Made by a program: the position numbers and the translations under genes. Of a DNA stretch of 64,000 nt, positions 47,714 through 52,924 are shown in pieces (within the stretch, counting starts at the first letter, position 1; every line of letters begins with the position of its first letter). The notes beneath the pieces are model-generated. The model searched no databases. It saw only the letters and a program-made list of their open reading frames with translations, and had not been told where the DNA came from. This DNA comes from Nitrososphaerota archaeon (lineage in GTDB: Archaea > Thermoproteota > Nitrososphaeria > PSMU01): contig PSMU01000001.1 of the NCBI GenBank assembly GCA_040290255.1, positions 338,385-402,384 on the forward strand. The letters run 5' to 3'.

Positions 47714-48526
47714 TTGAAGGCCAAGGCCGGGGCGCTCCTCTTCCTCCTCCTGGCGCTCCTCCCACTTCCCTCGAGCGGCGCGCAGGTCACGCAGGTCTCG
47801 ATCCTGCTGGACCCGACGGGCTACGCTTCGGTGAGCATGCTGGTGAGCTTCAATTCGAGCGAGGCGATCGCGCTCGTGCCCATGGTGGGCCGGCCGGACC
47901 TCTTCACGCTCACGGCCCGGGATGCGGGGGGCCAGCAGGTGCCCTTCAACCTGACGGACACGAGGATAAGCCTCCTGCTCCTGGGCGTCTCGTCGCCCGT
48001 AAAGTTGAGCTACTATACCTCCAACCTCACGGCGAAGAGGGGGCCCATGTGGAACGTCAGCTTCGTGGCCCCCGCGCCCACCACGCTCACGCTGCCCCAG
48101 GGGGCCGTGTTGATCTCCGTGAACCGCCTCCCCCAGGATGTGTCGACGGCCAACGGCGCCACGCAGCTCCTCCTGGCGCCCGGCCCCTGGTCCATCTCCT
48201 ACTTCCTCAGGCCCCCTCCTCCAGCTTCGGCCGGCTTCCCGTACCTGCTCGTGGCCGGCGCGACGGGCGGCGCGGCGGTGAGCCTTGCCGTGGCCCTGGC
48301 CTACATCAGGCTAAGGAGGAGGAAGGGCGAGGCCCGCCTCCGGCCCGATGACAGGCGCATCCTGGACTTCCTCAGGGCCATAGGGGGGCAGGCCTATGAG
48401 AGCGACATCGTGCGCGAGCTGAACCTGCCCAAGACCTCGGTGTGGAGGGCGATAAAGCGCCTCTCGGATGCGGGCCTGGTGAGGGTCGAGAGGGAGGGCA
48501 ACAGGGTGAAGGTGATTGCCAAGTAG
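47714..48526 (+). CDS. Membrane-anchored regulator: signal peptide, extracellular beta domain, TM, cytoplasmic wHTH (COG2512-like)
   Basis: TM at about aa 176-198, then DRRILDFL..GGQAYESDIVRELNLPKTSVWRAIKRLSDAGLVRVEREG. Confidence 0.82.
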   Translation: MKAKAGALLFLLLALLPLPSSGAQVTQVSILLDPTGYASVSMLVSFNSSEAIALVPMVGRPDLFTLTARDAGGQQVPFNLTDTRISLLLLGVSSPVKLSYYTSNLTAKRGPMWNVSFVAPAPTTLTLPQGAVLISVNRLPQDVSTANGATQLLLAPGPWSISYFLRPPPPASAGFPYLLVAGATGGAAVSLAVALAYIRLRRRKGEARLRPDDRRILDFLRAIGGQAYESDIVRELNLPKTSVWRAIKRLSDAGLVRVEREGNRVKVIAK

Positions 48527-48599
48527 GCGGGAAACGTTCCGAAACGGGTTCCTGCTGGAGGCCTTTTATAAGGCCCCGTGCAGCTCCTCCACGAGGGAA

Positions 48600-50324
48600 A
48601 TGGCCACCAGGCCCATCCTCGCGGCCCTGCTGCTGGCGCTGCTCACGCTCGCCGCCTTTGCGCCCCTGGCCAGCAGGGCTTCGCCTCCCCAGGAGGGCAA
48701 GCAGGCCGCGCTGCAGGCGCTTCAGGCCGTGCTGCAGGGCCTGCAGGACCTCAGGCAATACCTCTCGAGCACGAACGCCGGCGCCCAGGCGCTTCAGGCC
48801 CTGGATGGCGCGATCGCCAACCTCCGGGCCACGATCGAGATCGTGAACGCCACGGGCGATGCAAGGGCGGCCGAGGCCACGCTTGCCTATGAATCCTCGC
48901 GGCTGGCGCAGCTGCTGGGCGCTCTTGGGCCTGGCGCGCTCGGATCGGAGAGGCTGCAGAGGGCGCTTCAGCTCGCGCAGGGGAGGGCGGCGGAGCTCTC
49001 CCAGCAGGTGGGCCAGCTGCCCTCGGGCCCGCTGAGGTCCTCGCTGCTGCGGCTCCTTCAGCAGGCGAACCAGAGCCTCGCCCAGGCCTCCGGCCAGCTG
49101 CAGCAGGGCAACGTTTCGGGCGCCGCCCATGCGCTGGTCCAGGCCAAGGCGCTCTTGGGCCTCGTCAACGCGGCCCTCTCCAGGCATTTAGGGCAGGAGA
49201 GGCTGGAGAGGTATGGGCCTCAGGCGAGGGCCGCGCTGGAGAGGGCGCTGGCCAGGCTGCTGGAGAGGGCCTCAAAGCTGAAGGCGCAGGGCCTGGGCGC
49301 CCAGGCCCTCCTGCTGCTGGAGAGGGCCCTCGAGCTGGGCAAGGGCGCCGGCCGGTTGCTGAACAGCTCGGACCTGCAGGGCGCGATCTCCGCGCTGGCC
49401 CAGGCCGAGGAGCTGCTCGAGGAGGCGGAGGAGCACGCGGGCGAAGCACGGCAGGCGCTCTCATCGCTCACCGAGAGGGCGCAGGAGCTGGGCGATAAGT
49501 TAAGCGAGCTGGCCGCACGGCTGGCCTCGGCGCAGCTGCCGCCGGAGAGGCGGGCCCTGGCCAGCTCCCTGCTCTCCAACGCCACGGCCGCGCTGAATGG
49601 GGCCCTTATGGCGCTTGCGCAGGGCAGGCTCAAGGACGCCTCCCTGCTCTTGGACCGAGCCTCCTCGCTGCTGGCCCAGCTGCTGCAGCTGCTGGAGAGC
49701 GGGGGCCGGGGCTCGATAGGGGAGGCCCGGCTGGAGATAAGGGCGCGGCTCACGCCCCAGCAGCTCCGGCTCGAGATAGAGAATGCCGGCCAGGAGGCGG
49801 CCACGCTCATCTACATCAGGCTGCTGGACGCGGCCGGCGCCGAGGTGGCCCTCACGTGGTCCTCCTCTTGCCTGGGCACGCTCGCGCCCGGCGATAGGGC
49901 CAAGTGCGCGGCCCAGCTGCAGGCCCGGCCCAATCAGGCCTACACGCTCGTGGTGGGCGCGAAGCCCTCCTCCTCGCCCAACGTGAGCGAGATAAGGCTG
50001 CCGCTCCTGGCCCAGGCCGCGGCGCTGGGCCTGCTGAAGTTGGAGGGCGAGATAAAGGGCAACCTGTTGGAGCTCAAGCTGGAGGCCGAGCACGCGGCGT
50101 TCACGATAGAGGCGATTAGGGTGCTGACGCCCTCCCATCAGGAGCTGCAGCTGAGCTGGGTTAGCCCCTGCCCCAGCTCCCTGGCCGCAGGGCAGAGCGC
50201 GGAGTGCACGGCCACGGCCTCCTTTGTGGCCGGCCAGCCCTACATCGTGCTCGTGCAGGCGAGGTCCGAGGGAGGGGCCAGCATGATGCTCCAGCTCATC
50301 CTGCTGGCGCAGCACGAGGATTAG
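48600..50324 (+). CDS. Secreted protein with long helical repeats and two C-terminal Ig-like domains
   Basis: Signal peptide; A/L/Q-rich helical repeats; duplicated C..L.(P/A)G..A.C.A....Y...V.A domains. Confidence 0.7.
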   Translation: MATRPILAALLLALLTLAAFAPLASRASPPQEGKQAALQALQAVLQGLQDLRQYLSSTNAGAQALQALDGAIANLRATIEIVNATGDARAAEATLAYESSRLAQLLGALGPGALGSERLQRALQLAQGRAAELSQQVGQLPSGPLRSSLLRLLQQANQSLAQASGQLQQGNVSGAAHALVQAKALLGLVNAALSRHLGQERLERYGPQARAALERALARLLERASKLKAQGLGAQALLLLERALELGKGAGRLLNSSDLQGAISALAQAEELLEEAEEHAGEARQALSSLTERAQELGDKLSELAARLASAQLPPERRALASSLLSNATAALNGALMALAQGRLKDASLLLDRASSLLAQLLQLLESGGRGSIGEARLEIRARLTPQQLRLEIENAGQEAATLIYIRLLDAAGAEVALTWSSSCLGTLAPGDRAKCAAQLQARPNQAYTLVVGAKPSSSPNVSEIRLPLLAQAAALGLLKLEGEIKGNLLELKLEAEHAAFTIEAIRVLTPSHQELQLSWVSPCPSSLAAGQSAECTATASFVAGQPYIVLVQARSEGGASMMLQLILLAQHED

Positions 50325-51656
50325 CTACCTCATCCTTATATAGGCATAGGCCTCCGTCTGGGACTCGAAGCAGTAGAGGACCCTCTGGAAGGGCCTCCTC
50401 AGCTCCCTGACCTCCTCCCTTACCCTCTCGGGCTCCTCGCCCTTCACCACCCTGGCGATGAGCCTGGCTATCTCCTTCATCTCGCCCTTCCCCATCCCCA
50501 GCCTCGTGACCTCCTGCGTGCCCAGCCGGATGCCCGAGGGGTTCCGGTAGTGCAGTCCCTTCTGAATGTCCCCGTAGAGCAGCTGCCTGTTCACGATGAT
50601 ATTCGCCCTCTCGAGCCTCCTCTCCGCATCGCCCCCCAGGCAGTACCTGGAGACGTCCACGGCCACCTGATGGCTCTGCGTGAAGCCCCTGCGCTCGCCC
50701 ACCACATCCAGGCCCTCCTCGTGGAGCGCCTGGGCCAGGGCCCTCGCGTTCTCCACGACCCTCAGGCAATACTCGCGGCCAAAGGCGAGCATCTCGGCAA
50801 AGGCGAGCGCCTTGCCCGCCACGTGGTGCAGGTGGTGGTTCGAGACGGTGGCCGGGAAGGTGGTGGCCTTTATCACCTCGCCATTCCTTTCATCGCTCAC
50901 GATGGCGCCCCCCTGGGGCCCCGGTATGGTCTTATGGGTGCTCATCGTCATCACCCTTGCCCCCTCCCTGAGGGGATCCTGAAAGAGCCCGGCCGCCACC
51001 AGCCCGGCCACGTGGGCGGCATCATAGCAGACGAGCGCGCCCACCTCCTCGAGCGCGGGGGCCAGCTCCTTCAGCGGCTCGGGAAAGAGGATGAGCGAGC
51101 CGCCGAACATGGCGATCCTGGGCGGCTTATTGGCCCTGGCCATCTCCCTTATCTTGACCCTCGCGGCGTCCACATCTATCTGCAGCTCCTCATCATCGAA
51201 GGGCATGTACTGGACGTCCAGCCTGCTCACGAAGCCGGCCGTGCCCCTCACCCTCTCGGGGCCCATGGAGACGTGCCCCCCCTTCACGATGGGCTTCACC
51301 AGCATGACGTCGCCCGCCCTCGCGAAGGCGCTGTAGACCACGAGGTTCGCGACGAGGCCCGAGGTCGGCCTCACGTCGGCAAAGGGGGCCCTGAAGAGCT
51401 GCTTCGCCAGCTCTATGGCGATCTCCTCGGCCCTATCTATGTAGGTGCAGCCCGCGTAGACGCGCTCGCCGGGCCATCCCTGCGGGGGCTATGCCCTCTC
51501 CGCGTACCTGTTGCCGAAGTCGCTGGCGAGCGCCTCCCTTACCGCCGGGCTGGGCACGTTCTCCGAGGCGATCAGCGGAAGCGCCTCGCTGAACCACCTG
51601 TGGTGGCGCTGGAGCAGCTCCAGCACCTCCTCATAGTACTCCCTCGGCCCCTTCAT
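50325..51656 (-). CDS. glyA: Serine hydroxymethyltransferase, join(51656..51498, 51479..50325), 437 aa after removing an 18-nt insert
   Basis: Exon 1 has LIASEN..SDFGNRYAE; exon 2 has GWPGERVYAGC, GGHVS, YDAAHV, STHKTIPGPQGG, SGIRLGT. Confidence 0.92.
51480..51497 (-). other. Candidate bulge-helix-bulge (BHB) mRNA intron in glyA
   Basis: mRNA GCGG-AG^A-GGGC-AUA-GCCC-CCGC-AG^G; 4-bp central helix, two 3-nt bulges, in-frame UAG; excision gives GCG GAG GGA UGG (AEGW). Confidence 0.82.
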
Positions 51657-51739
51657 GGCGCACCCTGCCCTGGGCCCATGATAACCTTTGCCCCGGCCAG
51701 GCCCCTCAAGGTTATTAGCCAGGGCCTCGCCGCCGTGGC

Positions 51740-52924
51740 GTGCCCGTCAGGATAGGCATCTATGGCAAGACGAACGTGGGCAAGACCACCTTCTTCAGCG
51801 CGGCGACGCTGCTGAGGGCCGAGATCGCGAACTATCCCTTCACCACCAAGCAGCCCAACGAGGGCATCGCCCACGTGCTCACGCTCTGCGTGCACAGGGA
51901 GTTCAACGTGGAGGATAACCCCTCGAACTCGGCCTGCAGGGATGGCTGGAGGTTCATACCCATCACGCTCATAGACCTGCCCGGCCTCATAAAGGGCGCC
52001 TGGATGGGCAAGGGCCTGGGCAACCAGTTCCTCAGCGTGGCCGCGCAGAGCGATGCGCTCATACACGTGGTCGACGCCTCGGGCAGCGTCGATGCGGAGG
52101 GCCGCATCACGGAGCCCGGCATGGGCGACCCCCTCGCGGATATAGCGGACGTGGAGCAGGAGCTGGCCATGTGGTACATGAAGCTGATCGAGGCCAATAG
52201 GGAGAAGGCCGCGAAGCTGGCCGAGAGGCAGGGCCTGGCGAAGGCCCTGGAGGAGGTGCTCTCGGGCATAAAGGTGAAGGCCGCGCACGTGGAGCTGGCG
52301 CTCAAGGCCACGGGGCTGAGGCCCGAGGAGTTCGCGAGGTGGGATAAGGACAGCCTGAGGGACTTCGCCTGGGTGCTCAGGGACGTGAGCAAGCCCACGC
52401 TCATCCTGGCCAACAAGATGGACCTGCCCTACAGCGAGGAGAACTTCGAGAGGATCAGGAGGGAGTACAAGGACATGCTCGTGGTGCCCGCCAGCGCCGA
52501 GGCGGAGCTCGCGCTCAGGAGGGCCGAGGAGAGGGGCCTCATACGCTACATACCGGGCGAGGAGAGGTTCGAGGTGCTCAGGCCCGGGGAGCTCACGGAG
52601 CAGCAGAGGAGGGCGCTCGAGTACATAAAGCGCATGGTGCTCGAGCGCTTCATGAGGACCGGCGTGCAGTTCGCGCTGAACGTGGCCGTCTTCAAGCTGC
52701 TGCGCATGAACGCCGTATACCCCGTCTCGGACCCCCGCAAGCTCACGGACAGCAGGGGGAGGGTGCTGCCCGACGTCTTCCTGGTGCCCGACGGCATGAC
52801 GGTGAAGGAGTTCGCGGAGCTCATTCACAGCGAGCTGGCCAGGGGCCTTCTTTACGCCATAGATGCCCGCACGGGCCTTCACCTGCCCGTGGACTATAAG
52901 GTGAAGGACAGGGACGTGCTCTCG

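Follow-up and report, generated by a model that had tools for sequence, protein, structure and literature searches.

In a 64,000-nt stretch of DNA from a Nitrososphaerota archaeon (the window), the glyA gene, which codes for SHMT, carries 18 nt that are in all likelihood a tRNA-type BHB intron of the relaxed HBh' form, excised from the glyA pre-mRNA with joining of the two exons. The glyA mRNA very probably has to be spliced, to judge from the sequence and structure of the insert, its conservation and covariation, the purifying selection on both exons and the enzyme genes present in the same genome. We envisage that GCGG at the end of exon 1 would pair with CCGC near the 3' end of the intron, with the bulges AGA and AGG flanking this helix and the hairpin GGGC/GCCC closing inside it. 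An endonuclease of the heterotetramer type, made of catalytic and structural subunits, would cut after the second nucleotide of each bulge, and RtcB would join the exons into ...GCG GAG/GGA TGG..., giving an intact 437-aa SHMT; the excised 18-mer would be released, probably in circular form. An unspliced mRNA would give a 55-aa peptide only. That the glyA RNA is cleaved and ligated, with whatever efficiency, we infer from the features that follow.

51498..51656, minus strand: glyA exon 1, 53 codons from ATG 51656 to GAG 51500-51498, ending ...NRYAE; Pfam SHMT positions 5-50.
51480..51497, minus strand: predicted 18-nt BHB micro-intron AGGGCATAGCCCCCGCAG, with an in-frame TAG at 51491-51489; 15 further glyA genes carry a homologous insert at this position.
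50325..51479, minus strand: glyA exon 2, 384 codons plus the stop TAG 50327-50325, beginning GWPGERVYAGC; Pfam SHMT positions 51-399, E 4.7e-51.
51479..51503, minus strand: whole HBh' motif, with cuts predicted between 51498/51497 and 51480/51479.
5' half of the HBh' motif, minus strand: H 5' strand GCGG 51503-51500 (in exon 1), bulge 1 AGA 51499-51497, inner stem GGGC 51496-51493.
3' half of the HBh' motif, minus strand: loop ATA 51492-51490, inner stem GCCC 51489-51486, H 3' strand CCGC 51485-51482, bulge 2 AGG 51481-51479.

Read on the minus strand, the gene runs ...GAC TTC GGC AAC AGG TAC GCG GAG, then AGGGCATAGCCCCCGCAG, then GGA TGG CCC GGC GAG CGC GTC TAC..., and its translation across the insert is ...SDFGNRYAE RA* PPQ GWPGERVYAGC.... 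The original prediction had the coordinates, the sequence of the insert, its in-frame stop and the protein lengths correct to the base. It had also claimed that removal of exactly these 18 nt restores an intact SHMT of 437 aa. This was borne out by the Pfam alignment, in which SHMT positions 50 and 51 abut at the junction, so that exactly the 18 nt are surplus and glyA has no other lesion; 53 of the 437 aa come from exon 1 and 384 from exon 2. In the frame of exon 2 the first ATG, GTG or TTG comes only 35 codons beyond the junction, and these 35 start-less codons encode the invariant motif GWPGxRxYAGC. A search of 50000-52200 against Rfam gave no family above threshold and no match at the glyA intron; ARAGORN found no tRNA in the window, and no homing-endonuclease gene was seen beside glyA in the list of open reading frames of 49500-52500. 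Tail to tail with glyA lies an open frame of 602 aa (window 48516-50324, plus strand), rich in Ala, Leu and Gln and with a hydrophobic N-terminal stretch, which is possibly a secreted or surface coiled-coil protein.

The fold of the insert has the parts of a BHB motif, namely a central 4-bp helix, GCGG/CCGC, with two 3-nt bulges, AGA and AGG, on opposite strands. The 5' strand of this H helix is made of the Ala codon GCG and the first base of the Glu codon. The inner helix h' has 4 bp in glyA and the outer helix h just 1-2 bp, which makes the motif a relaxed HBh' and not a strict hBHBh'; it would be reliant on an enzyme of broad specificity, and this counts against an intron. The shape proposed originally, relaxed and with a weak outer helix, was thus recovered in each of its parts: a 4-bp H helix, two 3-nt bulges, a 4-bp inner stem and 1 bp of outer helix. 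A cut after the second nucleotide of each bulge would take the 18 nt out and join SHMT positions 50 and 51, restoring a functional RNA; the register of the cut is fixed only by the BHB rule, because shifts of 1-2 nt yield the identical spliced product. The HBh' motif is the minimum-free-energy structure of its 66-nt context. The folding energy of this GC-rich context is no better than that of shuffled sequences (z = 0.26), which counts against an intron. Of 200,000 shuffled versions of the 18 nt, only 21 had the complete 4-bp helix in this register together with an inner stem of 4 bp or longer.

Inserts of 18-39 nt were found at the identical YAE/GW(P/V/A)G site in 16 glyA genes, with lengths of 18, 25, 29, 32 and 39 nt; because those of 25, 29 and 32 nt put the codons behind them out of frame, translation through them is impossible. 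In a search of 40 relatives, six members of one family (f6) proved to have a 32-nt, frame-shifting insert at exactly this position. DNA patterns for an insert at this site, which demand TAC/GCS/GAR and GGNTGG and miss variants, matched 9 of 401 genomes of the class, namely this genome (G000) and all eight members of f6 (8/8), against 1 hit for a reversed-pattern control; the tally of 401 includes five unpublished genomes (G131, G230, G282, G326 and G364), none of which matched. In the phylum sample 2 of 401 genomes matched, G000 and G432, the latter with a 32-nt insert and belonging to another class, so that over the other classes of the phylum the insert was present in 1 of 340 genomes (G432). 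Furthermore, of the 80 best SHMT relatives in a collection that represents each species by a single genome, 8 have an insert there (one of 25 nt, one of 29 nt, five of 32 nt, two of these being f6 contigs again, and one of 39 nt). According to the titles of the records, which may be imprecise, one f6 contig comes from Conexivisphaera sp. and the other carriers are Nitrososphaerales, Bathyarchaeia or simply 'archaeon'; by the titles of named records, likewise, the class is Nitrososphaeria, broadly understood.

In a tree built from 110 different SHMT sequences, with 15 intron-bearing rows, at least six changes of state between presence and absence of the insert are required, and the well-supported branches alone force six. 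A gene without the intron, from a MAG with the record title Thaumarchaeota archaeon, is the fully supported sister of the glyA gene studied here, at 69% identity. The intron would consequently be either an old one that was precisely lost several times, an argument also made for cbf5, or one that entered a single site more than once.

The 16 inserts are all built alike: a 4-bp helix is followed by a 3-nt bulge, an inner stem (4-11 bp) with its loop, the returning strand of the helix and another 3-nt bulge. In the carriers, the 5' strand of the helix consists of the Ala codon and the first base of the Glu codon, and bulge 2 ends with the first G of the Gly codon. The H helix is fully paired in 15 of the 16; the 39-nt form (L094) has 3 of the 4 central pairs and ATG as bulge 2, and may be cut slightly differently. 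In the 25- and 29-nt forms (L080 and L087) the Ala codon is GCC instead of GCG, the partner strand changes from CCGC or CCGT to CGGT, and bulge 2 is TGG. With the step from GCGG/CCGC to GCCG/CGGT, in which the third H pair turns from G-C to C-G, the central helix itself covaries.

Covariation was tested on a gap-free alignment of the 11 distinct 32-nt forms, with 14 pairs and 500 shuffles. In these forms 96.1% of the cells pair, compared with 33-54% in controls whose partners were slid by 1-3 columns. Nine of the 14 pairs changed on both sides, a number reached by 2 of the 500 shuffles, and the percentage paired, the double-change cells, the pair types and the covariation score were reached by 0 of 500, although such shuffles overstate significance in related sequences; the slid controls keep the relatedness and also fail. 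The structure of the glyA inserts is therefore kept by compensatory changes. The alignment of glyA from relatives, proposed originally as a check, accordingly gave a patchy presence of the insert together with compensatory changes in its stems.

The genome encodes two proteins of the EndA family, of 183 aa and 182 aa. The best match of the 183-aa protein is the catalytic chain 3p1z_B (E 7.6e-48), and it also matches 2zyz_B; these are the catalytic chains of the heterotetramers of Aeropyrum pernix and Pyrobaculum aerophilum, respectively. A loop aligned between the 183-aa protein and the Aeropyrum chain is presumably the crenarchaea-specific loop with its lysine. The 182-aa protein, from a reading of its sequence, has no His at the aligned catalytic site, and its matches include the structural chain 3p1z_A. 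The splicing endonuclease of this organism is thus predicted to be a two-subunit enzyme of the crenarchaeal (alpha-beta)2 type, which two reviews (PMC6379350; PMC5829648) give as one of two endonuclease types that cut relaxed motifs. RtcB is also encoded (566 bits), and the gene content consequently includes what a host of such introns needs, an (alpha-beta)2 or epsilon2 endonuclease together with RtcB. The EndA and the RtcB on which the original prediction relied are both represented in the genome, EndA by genes for the two subunits of a broad-specificity type.

In cbf5, a passage of PMC2738675 places the predicted cut between the second and third residues of the bulge. In the genome under study, a cut after the second bulge nucleotide reproduces the intron borders given by ARAGORN in tRNA-Lys(CTT), with 15 nt, tRNA-Lys(TTT), with 11 nt, and tRNA-Ser(GCT), with 12 nt. 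Seven other tRNA introns do not fit the strict motif or are off by 1-3 nt, and several of these ARAGORN calls look doubtful; three confirmations were counted. The same rule could be applied to a coding sequence elsewhere in the genome.

G000:C9:5234-5253 (L038:1235-1254), plus strand: second coding-sequence micro-intron (predicted), 20 nt, phase 2, in an IF-2B-family (MtnA/aIF-2B-like) gene outside the window.

This insert is composed of the helix strand CTGC, bulge AAA, inner stem CGCGC, loop GTA, inner stem GCGCG, helix strand GCAG and bulge AGC. Pfam positions 2-114 of the gene lie before it and 117-280 after it. The gene is uninterrupted in all relatives searched, and its intron looks lineage-specific. 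In 26 of 26 relatives (3 of 29 loci, which had no exon-1 hit, were left out) ...THC is separated from (A/T)G... by exactly one codon, AAC or AAT, and cutting the insert by the bulge rule joins AA to C, that is, the invariant Asn codon of ...THC-N-TG.... If the insert is removed as predicted, this rebuilt codon is an independent confirmation of the cut rule in an mRNA of the same organism. The cuts originally proposed, after the second nucleotide of each bulge, therefore give an intact SHMT and follow a rule that also holds for three tRNA introns and for the IF-2B-family insert.

A scan of the whole genome for the strict motif with coding potential on both sides and an interrupted frame returned 65 rows, and 45 rows when 'no nearby start codon' was added; the scan is blind to other bulge sizes, to mismatched helices, to in-frame introns without a stop and to introns longer than 200 nt. 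Only two cases were convincing, glyA and the IF-2B-family gene. The suggestion that the lineage may hide many such micro-introns thus gains at least one further case in the same genome, but two convincing cases in total are not many. Most of the other rows are, by eye, ordinary gene boundaries (rpoB/rpoA, carA/carB, pairs of ABC ATPases), and two rows tested with Pfam turned out to be complete neighbouring genes. The cbf5 gene of this genome (TruB_N, G000:C3:28326-28664, minus strand) is one open frame of 336 aa with no frame-breaking intron.

A separate observation concerns the gene that follows pheT (G000:C2:86468-88039, minus strand; L158:169-1740), which has a Pfam tRNA_bind_4 domain and a weak class II synthetase core. 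From the upstream stop to some 50 codons beyond residue 12 of the frame, where its first Pfam domain begins, it shows no ATG, GTG or TTG. A TTTAAA box lies just upstream and no sensible BHB motif was seen there; the gene may use a non-canonical start codon.

Other explanations of the 18 nt have to be set against splicing. The assembly has 9 contigs and is 91% complete, and an error of assembly or sequencing might be suspected at this place, but we regard this as next to impossible. The DNA is matched in 7 public sequencing runs of 4 studies, all of them of DNA. In run X2, from which this assembly possibly derives, a 5,835-nt contig covers 50200-51800 without gaps and with 1 difference, insert included. 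In runs X6 and X7, which resemble one data set filed twice, a 994-nt contig covers 50920-51800 with 18 differences, none of them at 51436-51588, and this strain, about 98% identical, carries the 18-nt insert unchanged. The original prediction would have fallen had the reads lacked the insert; it is present in run contigs from other studies, the diverged strain included, and inserts also occur in independent genomes of other species. The insertion might instead be recent and its stop might have killed glyA, an SHMT-like paralog now doing the work; this we hold to be improbable, with only a slight chance of being right. It would account for the in-frame TAG, and there is indeed a second intact gene of the family, with the PLP lysine motif.

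G000:C4:269029-270267 (locus L032:1225-2463), minus strand: SHMT-family paralog, intact, 42% identical to glyA, with the lysine motif THK.

With such a gene present, loss of the interrupted glyA might be tolerated, which counts against an intron. The paralog, however, has RYTAPDGFYMGTRY where glyA has RYAEGWPGERVYAGC and lacks the YAEGWPG motif, and similar paralogs accompany an uninterrupted glyA in four other genomes (G018, G020, G030 and G034), so that the paralog is no replacement peculiar to this genome. Against the strain that is about 98% identical, the spliced frame of glyA, free of any further lesion, shows 16 synonymous and 7 non-synonymous changes, and the intron shows 0. We read this synonymous excess as the signature of purifying selection on glyA, exon 2 included; the two substitutions of exon 1 are both non-synonymous, which counts against an intron. 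An intact second copy, with relaxed selection on this one, had been named beforehand as grounds for giving up the intron, and half of this was found: the intact paralog exists, but relaxed selection was not seen. Moreover, a dead gene does not agree with inserts of the same fold at the same site, with compensatory changes, in 16 genes on at least six branches of the SHMT tree.

The insert could also be translated, by read-through of the TAG or by its use for pyrrolysine, into an SHMT of 443 aa with six extra residues, and it is compatible with this that, in this genome alone, the insert has a length divisible by three and keeps the frame except for the TAG. We nevertheless consider it very unlikely, since its homologues of 25, 29 and 32 nt throw the codons out of frame and in many cases start with TAG directly after the Glu codon, since the extra residues would fall inside the invariant YAEGWPGxRxYAG and divide this motif, the most conserved one of SHMT, and since the base pairing of the inserts is conserved and their coding is not. 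Translational bypassing is exemplified by phage T4 gene 60, and the stop and stable hairpin placed right after the last codon of exon 1 recall a bypass site. Ribosomes bypassing the hairpin, or two polypeptides that are made separately and then assemble, have in our view very little chance of being the explanation. Matched codons are absent, the take-off codon being GAG or GAA and the codon before exon 2 being CAG, TAG, TTG or CAT depending on the lineage; the conserved 3-nt bulges and the 4-bp helix are needed by a splicing enzyme and not by bypassing; and a separately made second polypeptide would have to be started in an exon that is start-less for 35 codons, the most conserved of the protein.

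The predicted tRNA-type intron in glyA is found at one site in several families and two classes, with strong covariation and with a second example in the same genome, which suggests that splicing of pre-mRNA by the enzymes of tRNA splicing recurs in archaeal gene structure and is no mere curiosity. Genes of this kind are called truncated, split or pseudogenes, and metabolic reconstructions from MAGs are distorted as a result, here by a 'missing' SHMT. As a wider hypothesis, which we offer tentatively and think rather doubtful as a whole, BHB micro-introns of 18-40 nt could form a class that spans the Thermoproteota-type archaea and lies in their core genes of metabolism and translation. These introns would be either very old, preceding the split of the archaeal classes and followed by many precise losses, or able to re-enter GCGGAR/GG by reversal of the endonuclease and ligase reactions, and the supply of SHMT would be tied to tRNA-splicing capacity. 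If this were true, the dependence of the supply of enzymes such as SHMT on tRNA splicing would be a possible regulatory coupling. The related family includes a complete genome and so may be cultured.

According to a passage in a 2020 study (PMC7714728), the single BHB intron reported from archaeal mRNAs, apart from that study's own case in a Haloferax 5' UTR, is the one of cbf5, and a structural paper of 2025 (PMC12397907), in the part that deals with mRNA, cites the cbf5 work alone. In the main texts of papers outside subscription journals, nothing was found that describes an intron of glyA/SHMT or introns of Conexivisphaera. Within the searchable literature, the glyA gene reported here would be the second gene family, after cbf5, with a BHB intron in its coding sequence.

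The BHB intron in the cbf5 pre-mRNA was reportedly described by Watanabe in 2002. In Desulfurococcales and Sulfolobales, according to passages of Yokobori 2009 (PMC2738675), this intron is short, lies in the coding sequence and mostly has a relaxed BHB motif; it is tied to the hetero-oligomeric splicing endonuclease, and its patchy occurrence is attributed there to inferred lineage-specific losses. The predicted glyA intron resembles it in all of these respects, being a short intron of a coding sequence with a relaxed BHB, the same predicted cuts, a hetero-oligomeric endonuclease and a patchy distribution. It differs in that cbf5 codes for an RNA-modification enzyme and glyA for a metabolic one, and in that its carriers are, by record titles, MAGs of Nitrososphaeria type or labelled Bathyarchaeia and not members of the cbf5 lineages. 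Splicing of cbf5, furthermore, was seen by cDNA, whereas that of glyA is predicted from DNA alone.

The splicing endonuclease of Haloferax is of the homodimeric type. In Haloferax volcanii, a passage of Schwarz 2020 (PMC7714728) describes a BHB intron in the 5' UTR of the HVO_1309 mRNA, with cleavage by the endonuclease confirmed in vitro. HVO_1309 and glyA are alike in that the archaeal splicing endonuclease acts on their mRNA, for glyA by prediction; unlike the glyA intron, that of HVO_1309 lies in an untranslated leader and leaves the reading frame uninterrupted.

Short non-canonical tRNA introns with hBH or HBh' motifs are mentioned, in a passage of PMC6379350, as work of Marck and Grosjean 2003. 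The glyA intron has the same motif as such introns, with 3-nt bulges and a central helix of 4 bp, is of similar size (they span 11-20 nt in this genome) and presumably depends on the same enzymes. In contrast to them, it would be recognized in an mRNA, which offers no tRNA body as an aid to recognition and hardly any outer helix, and two conserved codons, Ala-Glu, constrain the 5' strand of its central helix.
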